Shown here in pieces: positions 4,662 through 19,860 of a DNA stretch of 19,860 bases. Under the pieces are notes generated by a model. That model was given only the letters and a program-made list of their open reading frames with translations. It had not been told where the DNA came from and searched no databases. Made by a program: the position numbers and the translations under genes. Source of the stretch: a virus. Taxonomy: Duplodnaviria; Heunggongvirae; Uroviricota; Caudoviricetes. Numbering within the stretch: the first letter of the stretch is position 1; each line of letters starts with the position of its first letter. The DNA lies in IMG/VR virus record IMGVR_UViG_2778261687_000001, positions 1-19,860 of that record. One strand, given 5' to 3'.

Positions 4662-5607
4662 ACGCCCGCTGGTTATAAACACGCAGCTGGCGATGAAAAT
4701 TGGTCTGAACGAAGCCATCGTGTTGCAGCAGCTGCATTACTGGTTGAGAGATACCAGTTCCGGCATGGAATGTGATGGTGTTCGCTGGATTTATAACACA
4801 ACTGAACAATGGCTGGAACAGTTCCCGTTCTGGTCAGAGTCAACGTTAAAACGCGCATTTGCAAGTCTGAAAACGCTGGGGCTTTTGCGTTGCGAAAAGC
4901 TCAATAAATCAAAGCGCGATATGACTAATTTCTACACGATCAATTACGAGAGCAAGCTTTTAGATGATGGCAAATTGAGCGAATCCATCAGGTCAAAATG
5001 CGCCGCTCCATCAGGTCAAAATGACACGATGGAAGAGGCCAAAATGACACACCCCATTGGTTCAAAACGACCCAATGTCATCGGGTCAAAATGGCCCGAT
5101 GATCCTACAGAGATTACTACAGAGATTACTACAGAGAATAAAAACACTTCTTGTCCGGAAGCTTCGCAACCGGACGAGGAGACGGCTGAACAGGATTTTT
5201 TAACCCGACATCCTGACGCGGTTGTGTTCAGTGCGAAAAAACGCCAGTGGGGCAGCCAGGAAGATTTGACGTGTGCGCAGTGGATCTGGGGGCGAATCGT
5301 GAGTCTTTACGAACAGGCTGCCAGCGATGATGGCGAGATCACGCGACCGAAAGAACCCAACTGGACCGCATGGGCCAATGACGTGCGCACAATGCGGATG
5401 CTGGATGGCAGAACTCACAGGCAAATTTGCGAAATGTTCAGTCGGGTACAACGGGATCCATTCTGGGTAAAAAACGTCATGAGCCCGTCAAAGCTTCGCG
5501 AAAAATGGGATGAGCTGGTTATTCGTCTGGGACGTTCGCCTGTACAGCGTTGTGTGAATCACATTTCTGAACCGGACACCGAAATTCCGCCGGGATTCAG
5601 GGGGTAA
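4642..5607 (+). CDS. Replication initiator (lambda O-like replisome organiser), about 321 aa
   Basis: N-terminal winged-helix-like region (ERPLVINTQLAMKIGLNEAIVLQQLHYWL); direct DNA repeats (iterons) inside the coding sequence; followed by the DnaC-like loader. Start may instead be GTG at 4600. Confidence 0.75.
   Translation: MSLLFAERPLVINTQLAMKIGLNEAIVLQQLHYWLRDTSSGMECDGVRWIYNTTEQWLEQFPFWSESTLKRAFASLKTLGLLRCEKLNKSKRDMTNFYTINYESKLLDDGKLSESIRSKCAAPSGQNDTMEEAKMTHPIGSKRPNVIGSKWPDDPTEITTEITTENKNTSCPEASQPDEETAEQDFLTRHPDAVVFSAKKRQWGSQEDLTCAQWIWGRIVSLYEQAASDDGEITRPKEPNWTAWANDVRTMRMLDGRTHRQICEMFSRVQRDPFWVKNVMSPSKLREKWDELVIRLGRSPVQRCVNHISEPDTEIPPGFRG
4986..5136. repeat. Origin-like iteron array (CATCAGGTCAAAATG-type repeats, about 22-bp period) followed by tandem 12-bp ACAGAGATTACT repeats
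   Basis: Exact CATCAGGTCAAAATG at 4986-5000 and 5008-5022, variant CATCGGGTCAAAATG at 5078-5092 and degenerate copies between; ACAGAGATTACT tandem at 5107-5136; all inside the O-like gene, as for lambda ori. Confidence 0.55.
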
Positions 5608-5613
5608 CGGGTT

Positions 5614-6360
5614 ATGAAAAATATTGCTGCAGGTGGTGTTCTTGAACGCATCCGTAAGCTGGCCCCGCAGCATGTAACCGCACCGTACCGGACAGTGGAC
5701 GAGTGGAGAGAGTGGCAGCTTGCAGAAGGGCGAAAGCGTAGTGAGGAAATTAACCGCCAGAATCGCCAGATCCGGGTGGAGAAAATTATGAAGCGTTCCG
5801 GTATCCAACTGTTGCACCAGAAGTGTTCGTTTGCGAATTACCTGGTGAAGAACGATGGCCAACGCCACGCGCTGAGCCAGGCAAAATCCATCGCGGAAGA
5901 AATGATGACCGGATGCACAAATTTCGTGTTCAGCGGTAAGCCGGGTACCGGAAAGAATCATCTGGCAGCAGCCATTGGCAACCATCTTCTGGCGAAAGGT
6001 CGCAGCGTGATTGTGGTGACGGTGGCGGATGTGATGCTGGCGTTACACGGCAACTACGACAACAAAAACTCGGGCGAAAAGTTTTTACAGGGGTTGTGTG
6101 AAGTTGACCTGCTTGTCCTGGATGAAATTGGTATGCAGCGGGATACGCGTAACGAACAGGTCACACTGAACCAGATAGTCGATCGCAGAACGGCCTCGAT
6201 GCACAGCGTCGGGATGCTGACGAACCTGAACCATACGGCAATGAATACGCTGCTTGGTGAGCGCGTGATGGACCGCATGACCATGAACGGTGGTCGCTGG
6301 GTGAATTTTAACTGGGAGAGCTGGCGTTCAAATGTCAGTCATTTAAGGGTTGTGAAGTAA
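5614..6360 (+). CDS. DnaC-like helicase loader (IstB-type AAA+ ATPase; lambda P functional analogue)
   Basis: Walker A GKPGTGKNHLAAAIG and Walker B DLLVLDEIG; immediately follows the initiator gene. Confidence 0.85.
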   Translation: MKNIAAGGVLERIRKLAPQHVTAPYRTVDEWREWQLAEGRKRSEEINRQNRQIRVEKIMKRSGIQLLHQKCSFANYLVKNDGQRHALSQAKSIAEEMMTGCTNFVFSGKPGTGKNHLAAAIGNHLLAKGRSVIVVTVADVMLALHGNYDNKNSGEKFLQGLCEVDLLVLDEIGMQRDTRNEQVTLNQIVDRRTASMHSVGMLTNLNHTAMNTLLGERVMDRMTMNGGRWVNFNWESWRSNVSHLRVVK

Positions 6361-15390: not shown

Positions 15391-15405
15391 ACAGGAGAAA
15401 AACGT

Positions 15406-15795
15406 ATGTCTGAACCCTTGTCCGGTTCCGGCACGGCTGCGGCGCTCGGCGGGGCGACGGTATTCGGGCTGTTTACCGGGACGGATTTCGGGATTGTGTT
15501 TGGCGCGTTTGCCGGGGCGTTGTTTGTGGCCACGATGCCACAGGTGATTTCTGTCTGGCGTGTGGCGGCGCATTTTCTGGTGTCGTTCATTGTTGGCGTG
15601 CTGGGGGCGGATGTCCTTGCGTCCTGGCTGGTCGAAAAATTGAATCTCCACAGCACATCTCTCGACGCGCTTTGTGCGGTACTGGTATCGGTGGTGTCGG
15701 TGAAGATTCTCTCATTCATCCACCAGCAGGATATCGCATCGCTGGTATCCGGGCTGTTCTCCCGTCTGCGGGGTGGAGGCGGTAATGTTAAGTAA
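15406..15795 (+). CDS. Putative holin (three predicted TM helices), 129 aa
   Basis: AGGAG 9 nt upstream; three hydrophobic helices; first gene of a cassette ending in the endolysin. Confidence 0.55.
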   Translation: MSEPLSGSGTAAALGGATVFGLFTGTDFGIVFGAFAGALFVATMPQVISVWRVAAHFLVSFIVGVLGADVLASWLVEKLNLHSTSLDALCAVLVSVVSVKILSFIHQQDIASLVSGLFSRLRGGGGNVK

Positions 15796-16063
15796 CCTTC
15801 CCGGATTACTGAATGTGGTGTTAAGCTCGGTTATCGTGCTGACGCTCTTTTTTTATCGTCGCGGTGAGTCGAGATATAAACCGCTGATGTCGTGGCTGGC
15901 CTGGCTGTTGATGCTGCTTTATGCTTTTGCACCGCTTTGTTATCTGTGTGGTCGCTTCCCACCAGGTAACTGGCTGGTTGTCCTGATTAACTTGGTGTTC
16001 TGCGTGCTGGTGATACGAGCACGCGGGAACGTATCAAAAATCCTTGTATTACGAAGGCGCTGA
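15785..16063 (+). CDS. Second lysis-cassette membrane protein (three predicted TM helices), 92 aa
   Basis: ATG at 15785 with GGAGG 5 nt upstream, overlapping the holin 3' end by 11 nt; stop lies 2 nt before the endolysin start. Confidence 0.5.
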   Translation: MLSNLPGLLNVVLSSVIVLTLFFYRRGESRYKPLMSWLAWLLMLLYAFAPLCYLCGRFPPGNWLVVLINLVFCVLVIRARGNVSKILVLRRR

Positions 16064-16064
16064 T

Positions 16065-16610
16065 ATGAAGTCGAAAGATGAAATTTTTGACGAAATTCTG
16101 GGAAAAGAGGGCGGTTACATCAATCATCCGGATGATAAAGGTGGACCGACCAGATGGGGCATTACTGAAAAAGTTGCCCGCGCACACGGTTATCATGGCG
16201 ATATGCGTGACCTGACGCGTGAGCAGGCGCTGGAAATACTCGAGGCGGACTACTGGTACGGACCACGATTCGACCTGGTTGCGAACCTGTCTCCGGATAT
16301 TGCCTCAGAGTTGTGCGATACGGGCGTGAACATGGGGCCAACTGTGGCGTCCAGAATGCTTCAACGCTGGCTGAACGTTTTCAACCTGCGCGGGAAACTC
16401 TATCCGGATATGGATGCTGATGGACGCATCGGGCCGCGTACTCTTAATGCATTACGGGCATATCTGAAAAATCGCAGCAGGGATGGTGAACTGGTACTGG
16501 TGAAAGCCCTGAACTGTACGCAGGGCGAGCGTTATCTGGAGCTGGCAGAGAAACGCGAGGCCAATGAGTCGTTTGTCTATGGCTGGATGAAAGAGCGCGT
16601 GGCTGTGTGA
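16065..16610 (+). CDS. Endolysin, GH108-type N-terminal domain with C-terminal peptidoglycan-binding domain, 181 aa
   Basis: Hallmark EGGYINHPDDKGGPTRWGIT motif of the GH108 family; follows two small membrane proteins. Confidence 0.8.
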   Translation: MKSKDEIFDEILGKEGGYINHPDDKGGPTRWGITEKVARAHGYHGDMRDLTREQALEILEADYWYGPRFDLVANLSPDIASELCDTGVNMGPTVASRMLQRWLNVFNLRGKLYPDMDADGRIGPRTLNALRAYLKNRSRDGELVLVKALNCTQGERYLELAEKREANESFVYGWMKERVAV

Positions 16611-16699
16611 TAGCATTTAAAAATGATCATTATCAATGAGTTAAGTGTATGTTGCGTTTAATTTCTCCTGGGCGTACGCAACCAAAAGGAGAAATACGT

Positions 16700-16906
16700 A
16701 TGAAGTACTATGTTCACACTCTTACAGATAATCAGAACGATCATGAGGTTCATACAGAAACATGTTTTCGACTTCCTGATGCAAACAATCGTAAAGAGCT
16801 TGGAGAGTTTAGCTCATGTGAGCCGGCAGTGAAGGCCGCAAAAAATCTGGGTTACACGAGGGTGAATGGATGTTACTGGTGCTGCAGAGATTGCCATACA
16901 TCCTGA
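16700..16906 (+). CDS. Small Cys-rich protein, 68 aa
   Basis: AAGGAG 8 nt upstream; C-terminal GCYWCCRDCH cluster; followed by a strong terminator. Confidence 0.5.
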   Translation: MKYYVHTLTDNQNDHEVHTETCFRLPDANNRKELGEFSSCEPAVKAAKNLGYTRVNGCYWCCRDCHTS

Positions 16907-16930
16907 CATAAGGTGTGAATAATTCTGACA

Positions 16931-16958
16931 AAGGTCGCTTCGGCGGCCTTTTTTATTA
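16931..16958 (+). terminator. Intrinsic terminator (UUCG tetraloop hairpin plus T-run)
   Basis: AAGGTCGC-TTCG-GCGGCCTT then TTTTTATT. Confidence 0.6.
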
Positions 16959-16985
16959 CTCAAAAACGAAAGAACGGAGGTACGT

Positions 16986-17267
16986 ATGTACGCACTCAAG
17001 AAAATCACGGTAACAGAAGACGGTCGTCATGTTGAGGAAGTGCATGTCCTGGGGGATATGTACCGCCTGGAGTTCTATCCGCGTAACACTCATCTTGCAG
17101 CGAAGATTGAGTATTGCCGGGACGGGAATATTCCGTGCATTCCTGTAGAAAAAGAGGATGAAGCCTACATCATCACACTGAACGGTGACACGGCGCGTTG
17201 TATCTGTCGTGGCGACAGTGAAGCCCGGAATGAAATAGCAAGATGTCGCGCCCATACAGATAAATAA
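16986..17267 (+). CDS. Hypothetical protein, 93 aa
   Basis: GGAGGT Shine-Dalgarno; soluble, Cys-containing; followed by a terminator-like hairpin. Confidence 0.55.
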   Translation: MYALKKITVTEDGRHVEEVHVLGDMYRLEFYPRNTHLAAKIEYCRDGNIPCIPVEKEDEAYIITLNGDTARCICRGDSEARNEIARCRAHTDK

Positions 17268-17273
17268 AAAGCA

Positions 17274-17312
17274 AAAACCCCGGCTGCGGGAACAGTTCGG
17301 GGTTTTCTGTTT
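17274..17312 (+). terminator. Terminator-like hairpin with T-rich tail
   Basis: AAAACCCCG ... CGGGGTTTT followed by CTGTTTC. Confidence 0.45.
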
Positions 17313-17338
17313 CTGACCTTGAGTAAGCAAGGGAGAAC

Positions 17339-17521
17339 ATGGAGAAGTATAAACGAATTCTGTTTAGGTTGACTATGAAAAACGGCCTTGAATTGAAAGC
17401 GCCTGTAACTGATGACATCAGCAGAGCGGTGGCTTTTGCCATTAAGTGGGTGGCTGTCGGTATCGCTGTGTCTCCGATTCTGTATGGGATGGCAAAATTG
17501 ATCATTGCTGTGAAATCGTAA
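17339..17521 (+). CDS. Small protein with C-terminal TM helix, 60 aa
   Basis: GGGAG upstream; hydrophobic C-terminal segment AFAIKWVAVGIAVSPILYGMAKLIIAV. Confidence 0.4.
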   Translation: MEKYKRILFRLTMKNGLELKAPVTDDISRAVAFAIKWVAVGIAVSPILYGMAKLIIAVKS

Positions 17522-17538
17522 GTGGGGCAGGGGTAAAT

Positions 17539-17673
17539 ATGTCAGATAGCATTATAAAACTGGCGCGAATTCTCTGTGTGGCTGTTGGCCTTTCATTTTC
17601 AGCAATGTTGGTTGCCATTTTCATTTCCACCGCCTGGCGAGTATTGAGCTTATCCGGATTGATTGGTGGATAG
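17539..17673 (+). CDS. Small TM peptide, 44 aa
   Basis: ATG at 17539, 17 nt after the previous stop; single hydrophobic helix. Confidence 0.3.
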   Translation: MSDSIIKLARILCVAVGLSFSAMLVAIFISTAWRVLSLSGLIGG

Positions 17674-17677
17674 TGAG

Positions 17678-17860
17678 ATGAAGCGAAAACACTGGACACA
17701 CAGAATGCCGCGAACGGCGGCGAAATGGGCACTGGTAGCGATACTGGTGCCTTTTTTCCTGGTGGGATGCGTCAGCCTGGATAAGGCGCGCCAGCTTTTC
17801 GATACGGCTTCTCAGGTCTGCGAAATTGTCGACGGTGTTCGACAGTGTCTGCAGAGCTGA
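17678..17860 (+). CDS. Small predicted lipoprotein, 60 aa (lipobox LVGC)
   Basis: Basic N-region, hydrophobic core WALVAILVPFFLV, lipobox LVG-C; short Cys-containing mature part. Confidence 0.45.
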   Translation: MKRKHWTHRMPRTAAKWALVAILVPFFLVGCVSLDKARQLFDTASQVCEIVDGVRQCLQS

Positions 17861-18033
17861 TCGCCCGTAAGAGCAGAATATTTCGCTGAAAAATGAAGGA
17901 TGCGCCAGCGTCCAGAAAGCATGAAATTCTGCTGTGTGTGCCAATTTGTCTTATACATTCTGAATCTTGCCGCATCAGGATGAACTTTGAACAACAGCCC
18001 GGGCGGCAAGGGGCATTTTTATCCGGAGGGGAT

Positions 18034-18258
18034 ATGAAGAGATTACTGGTAACCGTAAAGCCCTTTAACGGAACGATTCCATTCAGGGTTTTGCAGCGTG
18101 GACGTGTTCTGGTTAAGGATATCTTCAGTGGTAAATGCACGGAATGTTATTCCCGGACATATGAAGTGGATGCCACGGATGAAGAAATTTCTGTTGAATG
18201 TGATCTTAACGCGAATATGGCGGAGATTGTAACAGCCACGTTGTTACCTGTTTCATGA
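18034..18258 (+). CDS. Hypothetical small protein, 74 aa
   Basis: Internal ATG with GGAGGGG upstream inside track ORF 17893..18258. Confidence 0.4.
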   Translation: MKRLLVTVKPFNGTIPFRVLQRGRVLVKDIFSGKCTECYSRTYEVDATDEEISVECDLNANMAEIVTATLLPVS

Positions 18259-18298
18259 ATGACATAGAATGTCTCCGGGTACCCAAAAGGAGAAAACT

Positions 18299-18514
18299 AT
18301 GTTTGTAGAAAATAACCTGAAGGCCGATCCTGATAATCAGGGATGGGTTCTGGGTTGGGCTGTAGTACGTGACAAACCCTGGCATCTGGTCGGTATTTAT
18401 GCAACGGAGGATGGCGCAAAGTCTAAACGCTCTGAATTGAATGGGGAGTATGAAGTTCGTTATGGTTCCCATCGTTTAGGTAGTGATGATTTTATGTCTG
18501 TCGGACTTAGCTAA
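18299..18514 (+). CDS. Hypothetical small protein, 71 aa
   Basis: AAAAGGAG Shine-Dalgarno; followed by a strong terminator. Confidence 0.5.
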   Translation: MFVENNLKADPDNQGWVLGWAVVRDKPWHLVGIYATEDGAKSKRSELNGEYEVRYGSHRLGSDDFMSVGLS

Positions 18515-18526
18515 CTGGCTGTGATG

Positions 18527-18555
18527 CCTGTTTGTAGCCCCGCAAATGCGGGGCT
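18527..18555 (+). terminator. Intrinsic terminator
   Basis: AGCCCCGC-aaat-GCGGGGCT then TTTTTTAT. Confidence 0.65.
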
Positions 18556-18570
18556 TTTTTATATCTGGAG

Positions 18571-18969
18571 ATGATGATGGAAAAAACAGAAAACAAACCT
18601 GTTGCAATTGGTGCTGATGCTGCTCCGTTTAAGTTTGAGTTGTCTCAACTGGTGGAGATGCGCATCAGTGATGAATGGGGTGAGGTTAAAGCCCGCGCGC
18701 AGTATGCGGATGGCGAAAACCAGTACTTGATCCACTACAAGGCTGCAGATGGTCGCGCCACGACGCAGTGGTTTGGTGAGTCAATGCTGGAAGCAACAGA
18801 AGATGATCGCCATCCGGGCTGTCCGGTATTTGCCGGTATGAAATTACCGGAAGGGGCAGTTGAACTGCAGCCGGGTGAGGTGTTCGTAATGTCAGAAGTC
18901 ATTGATGGTAAACCGCAGTATTCGCGTATTGAAATGAATAGTAAGAGTGCTCGCCTGATTCGTGAGTAA
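18571..18969 (+). CDS. Hypothetical protein, 132 aa
   Basis: GGAG upstream of a triple ATG; soluble acidic protein; a 13-bp stem-loop follows the stop. Confidence 0.6.
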   Translation: MMMEKTENKPVAIGADAAPFKFELSQLVEMRISDEWGEVKARAQYADGENQYLIHYKAADGRATTQWFGESMLEATEDDRHPGCPVFAGMKLPEGAVELQPGEVFVMSEVIDGKPQYSRIEMNSKSARLIRE

Positions 18970-19016
18970 CAGGCATTACAGCAGCCCTTCACTCTAAGGG
19001 GCTGCTGTAATGTGAG

Positions 19017-19054
19017 AAATAAAAAACCGGTCCAGCTACACAGAACCGGCCGGC
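19017..19054 (-). terminator. Minus-strand intrinsic terminator
   Basis: Minus strand reads CCGGTTCTGTGTAGCTGGACCGG then TTTTTTATTTC. Confidence 0.45.
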
Positions 19055-19140
19055 GAAGACCGCCAATACCACCCATGCATTGATGCAACATACTAATGAC
19101 AATAGCCGCTATTGATGTAAATGCAATGTTATGCATCGAC

Positions 19141-19184
19141 GAAAATAAAAAACCGGCAGGGGAAATCCATTGAAGACTTGCCGG
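19141..19184 (-). terminator. Minus-strand intrinsic terminator (second copy of the AAATAAAAAACCGG-flanked hairpin)
   Basis: Minus strand reads CCGGCAAG...CTGCCGG then TTTTTTATTTTC. Confidence 0.45.
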
Positions 19185-19329
19185 TGGCAAAAGTTGCCAA
19201 TGCTTTTATAACCGTAGTCACAGAGTTACGAAGTGCAACACCGAATGCTGCTGGTATATGGATGAATGGCGTTTCAATGATTTTCATCAATTTATTCATC
19301 AGCAATGGTGATAATCACTCTCATTTGTG

Positions 19330-19545
19330 CGGGTCCTTCCGGTGGGGGGGCCTGCCACGGGGCGGCAGCGTCGCGGAAAACGGCTAGTTTTTGCATTTTC
19401 ATGGTGGCGGCAGCATGTGATGTAATTTATTGATAATTAAAAGCTATTTCCATTTTCACCTGTACAATATTTTTTTCTCCCTGTCATTAGACCAGTTTGC
19501 AATTCATTGAAATATATAAATAAACCTGATTTTCACCTGCCAGAT
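19330..19545. other. Lambda-like cos region: cosN-like core (about 19356-19376) and two ATTTTCACCTG direct repeats (19452-19462, 19529-19539) as candidate terS-binding sites
   Basis: GGGTCCTTCCGGTG ... ACGGGGCGGCAGCGTCGCGG resembles the lambda right end and cohesive-end region (ACGGGTCCTTTCCGGTG ... GGGCGGCGACCTCGCGGG) as I recall it; it lies about 200 bp upstream of the terS start, as cosN does relative to Nu1. Confidence 0.5.
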
Positions 19546-19555
19546 GGAGTTGCTT

Positions 19556-19860
19556 ATGTCAAATGTGAGCGGGATCGGTGATGCTTATTACTGGAGTGTT
19601 TTTAAAATCGCCGAGGCCTTTGGGCTTCACCGGGACACAGTAAAAAAACGGCTCCTCGCGGCCAACACTCCTGTGGCTGCGACTGTCAGGGGGAACCCCG
19701 TTTACGCCCTGCAGCATGTCGGGCCTGCCCTGTTTAGTGTGAAGCATGAGGCAGCAGACTCTGTTCATGATCCATCCCGTATGGGTAAGCGGCTCACCAG
19801 AACCGTATTGATATTTACTGAGAGCTCAGATCAACTTTCCAGGGCAACAGATCGCGTACC
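19556..19860 (+). CDS. Terminase small subunit (Nu1-like), N-terminal 101 aa; gene runs past the window end
   Basis: GGAG 7 nt upstream; open to the window edge; N-terminal HTH-like segment (YYWSVFKIAEAFGLHRDTVKKRL) and GNPVYAL motif parallel lambda Nu1; sits just downstream of the cos-like sequence. Confidence 0.5.
   Translation, partial: MSNVSGIGDAYYWSVFKIAEAFGLHRDTVKKRLLAANTPVAATVRGNPVYALQHVGPALFSVKHEAADSVHDPSRMGKRLTRTVLIFTESSDQLSRATDRV

Follow-up and report, generated by a model that had tools for sequence, protein, structure and literature searches.

The lysis region and orfE

The window analysed here is the whole of a 19,860-nucleotide (nt) stretch, IMG/VR virus record IMGVR_UViG_2778261687_000001, and belongs to an Escherichia coli lambdoid prophage. 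Over positions 15400-19784 it shares 99.7% identity with strain RM13752 (NZ_CP044311.1), and strain R1 matches the window with 100% identity over 3,978 nt. Its late region holds, in this order, a Q antiterminator, a DNA methylase, a tRNA-Gly gene, a lysis cassette of the phiP27 type, a stretch of small genes, cos, and a DUF1441 small terminase. The subject of this work is orfE, a lipoprotein gene in the small-gene stretch, together with its relation to the spanin genes Rz and Rz1 and to its two upstream neighbors, orfC and orfD. The features on which the argument depends are the following (sizes in amino acids, aa; TM, transmembrane; pN/pS, ratio of nonsynonymous to synonymous polymorphism).

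15406..15795, plus strand: hol1, a Phage_holin_8 holin of 129 aa (Pfam PF16931, E = 3.5e-22; PHROG 198, holin)
15785..16063, plus strand: hol2, a three-TM Phage_holin_3_7 holin of 92 aa (Pfam PF05449, E = 8.5e-21), overlapping the end of hol1
16065..16610, plus strand: endolysin of 181 aa, Glyco_hydro_108 (E = 3e-25) and PG_binding_3 (E = 9e-27) in Pfam
17339..17521, plus strand: orfC, 60 aa with a C-terminal hydrophobic segment (PHROG 1115, E = 1e-40)
17539..17673, plus strand: orfD, 44 aa with one TM segment and a tail of ~13 residues after it (PHROG 4906, E = 4e-19; pN/pS 0.10)
17678..17860, plus strand: orfE, a 60-aa prolipoprotein with signal peptide 1-30 and lipobox L28-V29-G30-C31 (PHROG 7528)
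17727..17758, plus strand: terminator-like hairpin and U-run inside orfE, codons 17-27; the 26-nt hairpin (17727-17752) folds at -15.6 kcal/mol

orfE encodes a small, conserved lipoprotein

A sequence-only reading of this DNA, made without database searches, had described orfC, orfD and orfE as a tight trio of membrane or lipoprotein genes, the last of them a lipoprotein. A lipobox check bore out the latter assignment, with L-V-G-C31 as the processing site. The mature peptide is 30 aa long and contains two further cysteines, C48 and C57, ending three residues past the second. To describe the family, 22-24 diverse members were compared: L-[VA]-G-C31 is invariant among them, and residue +2 is V, A, T, S, G or E but never D, which predicts sorting to the outer membrane. 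The other invariant features are M1, the h-region LVAILVP, C48 and C57, with G53 nearly so, and the n-region of the signal peptide (residues 1-16, MKRKHWTHRxPR) is more conserved than the mature part. Mature peptides in the family measure 29-33 aa, are amphipathic (hydrophobic moment 0.5-0.64), contain 0 prolines and range in net charge from -4 to +3. All 73 distinct orfE alleles are intact, with a pN/pS of 0.23. An AlphaFold2 model of low confidence (pLDDT, the predicted local distance difference test, of 67) shows a helix to residue 44, followed by a hairpin in which C48 and C57 come close. The possibility of dual-start isoforms, from M1 and M10, was rejected, as M10 is not conserved across the family.

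The family is small: clustered at 90% identity it forms 144 groups, and at 50% it has 23 representatives. Every named source belongs to the Enterobacteriaceae (Escherichia, Salmonella, Citrobacter, Cronobacter and Yersinia), and a genome scan added Lelliottia. Among 5,426 complete E. coli genomes, 312 carry orfE, at up to 7 copies each, and its chromosomal copies in E. coli number 484. Where annotated at all, it is called hypothetical; its carriers include Stx2e and Stx2k toxin phages. A profile search of 1.84 billion representatives returned 23 matches, all of them equally tiny lipoproteins, and this exhaustive search revealed no tie to a larger family or to known outer-membrane spanins (o-spanins). 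No Pfam family was matched at E <= 1 and no NCBIfam family at all, so that orfE does not belong to the Bor, Cor, Rz1 or entericidin families, and a comparison of its profile with the sequences of the PDB gave noise only. One further record, PP818812.1, is named Actinobacillus phage vB_Apl-pPE4 and carries an E. coli-type lysis cassette with an orfE that is 93% identical; its host assignment looks doubtful.

orfE and Rz/Rz1 are mutually exclusive

The absence of recognizable Rz/Rz1 genes after the endolysin, remarked on in the sequence-only reading, was confirmed: no match was found there in Pfam, NCBIfam or PHROG, and no spanin is annotated anywhere in the prophage. A scan of all open reading frames (ORFs) in the whole prophage (45 kb) yielded no credible lipobox ORF besides orfE, and among late-region ORFs none combines an N-terminal TM segment with a long periplasmic tail. 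In phiP27, a single further credible lipobox gene was found, L05, which lies in the early region and encodes a lipoprotein of 275 aa; near the lysis genes there is no ORF that resembles an inner-membrane spanin (i-spanin), and none is visible in compact orfE loci either. Thus, in the window, its prophage, phiP27 and the compact loci, no i-spanin gene adjoins, overlaps or embeds orfE, whereas an o-spanin gene would be expected to lie beside or inside one.

To compare orfE with Rz/Rz1 across related phages, IMG/VR was scanned with orfE, hol2 and a distant orfE relative as anchors, the best 80 of 251-299 matches being taken in each scan, and the loci (numbered with the prefix L) were typed by tblastn. 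A scan of genome contigs yielded three loci. The hol2-anchored sample does not presuppose orfE. Among its 80 loci, 66 carry orfE without Rz and 5 carry Rz with an embedded Rz1 and no orfE, while both genes occur together in 0; 4 loci lie on truncated contigs, and 5 have neither gene. These last five comprise two loci with LT-II-like toxin genes (one of which has a frameshifted endolysin), one with a remnant of the orfE 5' end left by a deletion, and two that are otherwise rearranged. After removal of duplicate contexts, orfE alone is found in 63 loci of the sample and Rz alone in 4, and the two are found together in 0. Over all sets, the orfE family is found in 142 distinct 1.8-kb contexts, and an Rz/Rz1 match in 0 of these.

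The exchange can be followed at the level of single loci. Identical hol2 proteins occur in orfE cassettes and in Rz cassettes. L148 (M15 endolysin, Rz/Rz1, orfF) and L062 (M15 endolysin, orfE, orfF) share homology throughout hol1-hol2-M15 and the first 8 nt of Rz or orfE, beyond which they diverge, over 464 nt of Rz/Rz1 in the former and 329 nt of orfE and spacer in the latter, and realign at orfF. In GER2, a Shiga toxin (Stx) phage with Rz, an orfE homolog with three in-frame stops is located at L005 3501-3668, downstream of Rz and of an Ais-like phosphatase gene, a state that would fit decay of a gene made redundant by Rz. Cargo genes pile up freely in this stretch, whereas orfE and Rz/Rz1 never co-occur. 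Published counts fit the same picture: Pinto et al. (PMC8136144) found Rz in 277 of 279 Stx phages, and their cluster C, made up of two Stx2e phages, is the sole cluster with a canonical metallopeptidase endolysin and a classical holin. From these counts we infer that the two phages without Rz are those of cluster C. phiP27, an Stx2e phage from a human isolate in Germany, lacks Rz.

orfE is coupled to the endolysin gene

In the orfE-anchored set (80 loci), orfE follows hol1, hol2 and the endolysin gene wherever the contig extends upstream. In 27 compact loci it begins 21 nt past the last aligned residue of an M15 endolysin, with no intervening gene, and in L069 its ATG overlaps the stop codon of a Glyco_hydro_108 (GH108) gene as ATGA. 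More distant members behave similarly. A relative of 56% identity in Lelliottia (L173) overlaps the end of a GH108 endolysin gene that has a single Phage_holin_3_1 holin upstream; a still more distant one (L174) is separated by 4 nt from a preceding Peptidase_M15_4 endolysin, with Q and a Phage_holin_3_1 holin farther upstream; and another variant follows a CHAP endolysin (L181 and L183). The family is thus associated with three unrelated endolysin classes (GH108, Peptidase_M15_4 and CHAP) and with two holin systems, either the Phage_holin_8 and Phage_holin_3_7 pair or a single Phage_holin_3_1, which is not how an enzyme-specific regulator would be expected to behave. As judged from gene order, orfE appears to be a modular lysis gene, often translationally coupled to the hydrolase. 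A disulfide bond between orfE and a periplasmic CxxC loop of hol2 was also considered and rejected: the second cysteine of the loop is not conserved, the motif is missing from the divergent hol2 of L069 and from the single Phage_holin_3_1 cassettes, and identical hol2 proteins serve Rz cassettes.

These arrangements also bear on the possibility that orfE is not a lysis effector at all, but a lipoprotein of lysogenic conversion or exclusion, a lysis-timing regulator or a protective factor, in phages that lack an outer-membrane step. Small phage lipoproteins with such roles exist, namely Bor, Cor and Llp of T5, and orfE resembles them in being a small phage-encoded lipoprotein with predicted outer-membrane location. 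Cor and Llp travel with tail or receptor modules. Bor adjoins Rz in Stx phages on the opposite strand, and therefore presumably has its own promoter. The slot in which orfE is found does accept cargo, including LT-II toxins, a terminator-like hairpin is situated within orfE itself, and ~13% of the phages of Gram-negative hosts have no identifiable spanin (PMC6139136). However, the start of orfE abuts or overlaps the endolysin stop, which leaves no room for a promoter of its own, and expression with the late lysis genes is therefore expected. Moreover, orfE is constant where true cargo is variable, and its strict exclusion of Rz/Rz1 is in contrast to the free accumulation of cargo around it. 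The cassette is independent of endolysin chemistry and of tail type, being found in a myovirus (phiP27) and in a siphovirus, which speaks against orfE blocking a receptor that goes with one kind of tail. Finally, orfE has no homology to Bor, Cor or Llp, and neither Pfam nor PADLOC links it to Bor, Cor or defence families; the earlier suggestions of an exclusion lipoprotein or a small toxin found no support in these searches. We consider a role outside lysis unlikely.

The spanin entry of phiP27

Kongari et al. 2018 (PMC6139136, supplementary file 5) list phiP27 as having a separated two-component spanin, a bioinformatic call. A 64-aa i-spanin with 32 periplasmic residues is placed at 20348-20542, and a 51-aa o-spanin, whose 30 mature residues are predicted to be 83% helical, at 20706-20861; each forms a singleton family, and with 30 + 32 = 62 periplasmic residues the system is the shortest of 528. 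The o-spanin entry turned out to be the orfE ortholog read from Met10, with 95% identity. The sequence-only reading was to count as refuted if the trio aligned to known spanin or Bor/Cor families, and this applies in part: orfE does align with a putative o-spanin, while no Bor/Cor family is matched and the i-spanin half of the published pair is contradicted. The i-spanin ORF, which has a TTG start and belongs to no PHROG family, was found in 4 of 80 loci, and a 90-aa member of PHROG 36812 (E = 5e-20) lies antisense to it. The i-spanin ORF is probably spurious. The 90-aa ORF itself, on the minus strand at phiP27 20332-20604 (L002 4183-4455), is unannotated.

A second annotation problem was noted at the same place. 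The phiP27 gene L32 (20630-20785 in RefSeq and GenBank) is drawn in the wrong frame over the real, unannotated lipoprotein gene at 20679-20861; the two together span phiP27 20630-20861 (L002 4481-4712). In the window, a stop codon just upstream closes the L32 frame, whose first start codon lies 19 codons before its end. A 2025 paper on Stx2e phages discusses the holin alone.

The catalogue entry raises the possibility that orfE is an ordinary o-spanin whose inner-membrane partner has gone unrecognized, this partner being either a small or atypical phage protein (orfD, orfC or a holin) or an envelope-spanning protein of the host. The lipobox, the post-endolysin position and the periplasmic cysteines of orfE are all compatible with this, orfD ends 4 nt before the orfE start in the window, and a distant family member weakly matches PHROG 1275, 'Rz-like spanin' (E = 0.008). 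The candidates do not withstand comparison, however. Apart from the published i-spanin ORF dealt with above, orfC and orfD are missing from at least 27 compact cassettes and are also found with Rz/Rz1, and no holin type is common to all cassettes. The 13-residue tail of orfD and the 30 residues of orfE are together far too short for the periplasm, and the weak PHROG 1275 match covers the signal peptide and lipobox. An overlooked partner therefore seems quite improbable to us. By its sequence features, orfE would be better described as an o-spanin-like lysis lipoprotein without an i-spanin, a reading partly anticipated by the 2018 entry, the two-component part of which is contradicted here.

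orfC and orfD are separate from orfE

The soluble part of orfC is predicted to be cytoplasmic, because its N-terminal 29 residues have a net charge of +3; for this reason, and as orfC co-occurs with Rz, its interpretation as a type I i-spanin was rejected. Two subtypes of orfC were distinguished among the loci. Homologs lie between the lysozyme gene R and Rz in PhiR12-type phages, and the second subtype lies upstream of Rz in GER2, with its stop abutting the Rz start. Sequences similar to orfD are present in 276 phage records, nearly all of them Stx-converting, and many of the listed matches are unannotated. In both records inspected, BP-4795 (ORF50, L169 2486-2632) and Stx2-86 (L170 2501-2629, unannotated), the homolog has 44-48 aa and lies between ant and Rz. 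The megablast homology between the window and PhiR12_3 ends at about the orfD/orfE boundary, which is near the Rz start in PhiR12_3.

The sequence-only reading had proposed that the trio might be an unusual spanin equivalent. Of this, one part stands: one of the three small membrane genes, orfE, is plausibly such an equivalent. A three-part spanin equivalent or toxin set made of orfC, orfD and orfE acting together would account for their close spacing (17 nt between orfC and orfD, 4 nt between orfD and orfE), for the lack of terminators between them and their placement behind the orfB terminator, and for a total complement of two inner-membrane peptides and one outer-membrane lipoprotein. Against this, orfE occurs alone in at least 27 loci, the second orfC subtype occurs with orfE without orfD, orfC and orfD occur with Rz without orfE, and orfD accompanies Rz in the two Stx phages inspected. 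Since orfC and orfD accompany classical spanins and are absent from many orfE cassettes, in which only orfE is constant, the trio is not a functional unit, and joint action of the three is highly improbable. orfC and orfD are separate small inner-membrane accessory proteins of both spanin-type and orfE-type cassettes.

An accessory or lysis-timing role of orfC and orfD is possible. By its description, Lcc6 of the Shewanella phage LambdaSo is comparable to them: it is a 65-aa phage protein with a single TM segment that is required at the holin step (bioRxiv 10.1101/2024.01.23.576932). Unlike Lcc6, which is required, orfC and orfD can be missing from the cassette, as they are in many relatives, but given this precedent for a tiny TM lysis protein they should not be dismissed.

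Several unrelated small proteins with a C-terminal TM segment are encoded just upstream of Rz or orfE (L126 5084-5221, L004 2826-2999 and L005 2130-2282). They share the ending ...RWW, with a stop at or just before the next start, and these shared ends probably reflect a common junction or ribosome-binding sequence (TGGTGGTGA).

A possible role of orfE in lysis

On balance we lean towards the view that orfE is the lysis gene for the outer-membrane step, in the slot that Rz/Rz1 fills in sister phages. In its small size as a prolipoprotein, its lipobox, predicted outer-membrane sorting, conserved periplasmic cysteines and post-endolysin position it resembles the o-spanin Rz1 of lambda. It differs from Rz1 in having no conserved i-spanin partner (the type II protein with a periplasmic coiled coil; the phiP27 candidate does not supply one) and in being neither embedded in nor overlapping another spanin gene, and its proline-free mature part, predicted to be helical or hairpin-shaped rather than unstructured, contrasts with that of Rz1, which has 10 prolines. 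With 29-33 mature residues the family falls short of the bridging length of a two-component spanin. In the absence of an i-spanin and with 30 mature residues, therefore, orfE cannot bridge and fuse both membranes as Rz-Rz1 does. That it acts without any inner-membrane partner at all is suggested by the same features, although we hold this part with distinctly less confidence.

Other known systems were compared in the same way. In T1, too, Rz/Rz1 is replaced by one gene whose product bears a lipoprotein signal, the unimolecular spanin gp11; this protein, however, is anchored in the inner membrane by a C-terminal TM segment and has a periplasmic domain of roughly 100 residues, whereas the only hydrophobic stretch of orfE is its signal peptide. 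Disruptin, gp28 of phage phiKT, is likewise a single small protein that replaces the spanins for disruption of the outer membrane; it is not known to carry a lipid anchor. gp28 is described as a cationic antimicrobial peptide (bioRxiv 10.1101/515445). orfE differs from it in being a lipoprotein and, in view of the charge range of its family, a cationic mechanism that displaces lipopolysaccharide, like that of disruptin, is unlikely.

The closest analogy is to the colicin release lipoproteins (Lysis_col). These yield a mature lipopeptide of ~28-35 residues from a precursor of 45-60 residues, act alone via the outer-membrane phospholipase A, are made at the end of an induced lethal programme, and have an unusually conserved signal peptide. 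orfE belongs to the same size class, and in it, too, the n-region is more conserved than the mature part. It differs from them in having no sequence similarity, in its place in a phage lysis cassette, and in its two extra invariant cysteines; the analogy therefore concerns how orfE may work, and not family membership.

The mechanism that we find most likely, though tentative, is the following. The holin and endolysin would act first, after which orfE would destabilize the outer membrane from the periplasmic side. After Sec export, lipidation at C31 and Lol-dependent sorting to the outer membrane, the peptide might be stapled or cross-linked through C48 and C57, and might perturb the inner leaflet of the outer membrane, perhaps activating the outer-membrane phospholipase A as colicin release lipoproteins do. 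If so, orfE would represent a third class of phage outer-membrane disruptor after the spanins and the cationic disruptin, namely a stand-alone lipopeptide of ~30 residues that either acts through host phospholipase A, by a colicin-release-like route, or perturbs the inner leaflet directly, with its expression perhaps limited by the internal hairpin. We offer this as a possibility only, and a somewhat doubtful one.

Several points weigh against assigning the outer-membrane step to orfE. As 30 mature residues are too short for the periplasm, the known spanin mechanism is inapplicable and the one proposed here is conjecture. The peptides are not consistently cationic, as a membrane-active agent of the disruptin kind would be, given their net charges of -4 to +3, nor does Pfam reveal any similarity between orfE and the colicin lysis proteins, and the structural model is of low confidence (pLDDT 67). 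Spanins are dispensable in shaken laboratory cultures, so that this lineage might have no outer-membrane step at all, with a different function for orfE. The exclusion counts are drawn from the best 80 matches of each scan, and they overstate the number of independent events because the loci are mostly E. coli prophages that share ancestry. Detection of Rz relied on tblastn and four references, three for Rz and one for Rz1, and very divergent spanins could have escaped it beyond the two fully scanned genomes. A literature search found no experimental work on the orfE cassette or on any family member.

The last step of lysis in Gram-negative hosts is generally attributed to spanins, and to our knowledge only one alternative to them, disruptin, has been shown experimentally. 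orfE, a small conserved lipoprotein that replaces Rz/Rz1 cassette for cassette in E. coli phages, is a candidate for a different outer-membrane mechanism, and complementation of amber mutants in lambda Rz/Rz1, which offer the best genetic system available, would allow a direct test. The route by which the outer membrane is opened also affects toxin release by lysogens of Stx2e, Stx2k and LT-II phages. For annotation, the analysis affects the phiP27 entries discussed above, in the case of the lipoprotein region the RefSeq frame, as well as the 44-aa gene upstream of Rz in many listed Stx phage records.

The hairpin within orfE

The 5' part of the orfE coding sequence (window 17707-17758, codons 10-27) contains two hairpins, the second of which carries the U-run. 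A 46-nt stretch around it (17720-17765) folds at -18.4 kcal/mol (z = -2.9). Across the 73 alleles, synonymous sites in codons 16-26 are almost invariant while those in codons 27-28 vary freely, and most of the variants that do occur keep the pairing. Hairpin and U-run are retained in the distant relatives L173 and L176. One possible explanation is that this element is an attenuator, which may limit the expression of orfE from read-through transcription in lysogens.

The neighbouring small genes

Eight small plus-strand ORFs are present between the endolysin stop (16610) and cos, as the sequence-only reading had described. Besides orfC, orfD and orfE, the stretch holds the following features.

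16700..16906, plus strand: orfA, 68 aa with 6 Cys and 3 His, C-terminal GCYWCCRDCH, ending GCYWCCRDCHTS; Shine-Dalgarno AAGGAG (PHROG 4298, E = 8e-25)
16930..16957, plus strand: intrinsic terminator after orfA, 9-bp GC-rich stem and U6; 59-nt fold at -14.7 kcal/mol, z = -2.7
16986..17267, plus strand: orfB, cargo gene of 93 aa (PHROG 33497, E = 3e-49; pN/pS 0.19)
17276..17312, plus strand: intrinsic terminator after orfB, hairpin followed by UUUUCUGUUU; 55-nt fold at -20.7 kcal/mol, z = -2.7
18034..18258, plus strand: orfF, cargo gene of 74 aa (PHROG 2571, E = 2e-28)
18241-18270, plus strand: promoter-like site upstream of orfG, TTGTTA-18-TAGAAT
18299..18514, plus strand: orfG, cargo gene of 71 aa (PHROG 4280, E = 4e-41)
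18536..18561, plus strand: intrinsic terminator after orfG, 8-bp stem with 7 GC pairs and U6; 56-nt fold at -21.7 kcal/mol, z = -3.2
18577..18969, plus strand: orfH, cargo gene of 130 aa, homolog of phiP27 L33 (PHROG 1935, E = 2e-67)
18973..19011, plus strand: hairpin of 17 bp after orfH, with no plus-strand U-run; 63-nt fold at -29.2 kcal/mol, z = -6.7

The sizes given earlier, 44 to 132 aa, were measured as 44-130 aa, with orfH reaching 132 aa from an upstream ATG. The claim that several of the genes have their own Shine-Dalgarno sequence and hairpin terminator holds: a purine-rich Shine-Dalgarno sequence is located 5-10 nt upstream of each of the eight, terminators were found after orfA, orfB and orfG, and folding gave none behind orfC, orfD, orfE or orfF. 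Terminator-like sites are enriched in 15000-19860, with 18 against 4.6 +/- 2.2 in shuffled sequences. The site upstream of orfG is the only sigma-70-like one on the plus strand, and the count of promoter-like sites is below the shuffle expectation.

That such short ORFs might be chance reading frames in a non-coding spacer had to be considered, as Pfam and NCBIfam contain no family for any of the eight and RefSeq, in the RM13752 prophage, annotates seven of them as hypothetical proteins and leaves out orfA. This explanation is refuted, and its probability close to nil. All eight match PHROG families of unknown function (E = 1e-19 to 1e-67) and have Shine-Dalgarno sequences, homologs of the small genes are found in several genera, and pN/pS among alleles from related loci is 0.00-0.40 for every one of them, which identifies them as real coding genes.

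The genes orfA to orfD and orfF to orfH are gained and lost between loci, and architectures vary widely. orfA switches sides relative to orfE, being downstream of it in other loci; its cysteines and histidines may bind metal. The presence of orfB varies, and orfF follows Rz/Rz1 in L148 and orfE in L062 and in the window. With their variable presence at a fixed genome position, orfA, orfB, orfF, orfG and orfH are interchangeable mobile cargo genes, and the terminators after orfA, orfB and orfG fit the pattern of morons; RNA polymerase modified by Q would read through these terminators. The sequence-only reading had compared the stretch to a moron slot, and this proved apt, as sister prophages hold LT-II enterotoxin genes at the same position. 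PADLOC gave no match for any of nine small proteins, so that none belongs to a defence system known to it. orfH has 77 homolog clusters, all hypothetical, and its AlphaFold2 model is unusable (pLDDT 48).

The LT-II-type genes for enterotoxin A and B occupy the slot after the endolysin at L087 5798-6938, L088 5219-6368 and, in L143 and L150, about 4950-6170. These four loci have the same hol1-hol2-GH108 cassette and neither orfE nor Rz; the endolysin of L143 is frameshifted.

Prophage setting

The remaining features of the late region are as follows.

11431-12102: Q antiterminator, intact, 223 aa (Phage_antiter_Q, E = 2e-90)
14856-14928: tRNA-Gly
19129..19287, minus strand: convergent gene beside cos, 52 aa, annotated in RefSeq and recurring in many related loci
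19360..19375, no strand assigned: cos cleavage region, starting GGGCGGCAGCGTCG

In the best explanation, the prophage is a lambdoid mosaic whose late operon depends on Q, and the region is the distal part of that operon, with hol1, hol2, the endolysin gene and orfE as its core lysis cassette. The endolysin, of the GH108 type, has neither a signal sequence nor a signal-anchor-release sequence. The tail type of the window prophage is that of a lambda-like siphovirus. cos was placed at window position 19360 because the deposited genomes of the phages Tritos and cdtI begin there (GGGCGGCAGCGTCG). In an Rfam search of the window, only the tRNA-Gly and a sub-threshold GcvB match on the orfG terminator were obtained, and PADLOC and PHROG searches gave no family match for the 52-aa minus-strand gene.

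In the RM13752 prophage (L006 11838-12101), Q is annotated as an N-terminally truncated pseudogene; this prophage diverges from the window upstream of ~12 kb and is otherwise near-identical. Inspection of window 19020-19290 by eye revealed two tandem motifs of hairpin and T-run on the minus strand (about 19190-19140 and 19055-19020) that face the late operon, and the terminator scan near cos returned weaker minus-strand sites at 19062-19047 and 19049-19032.

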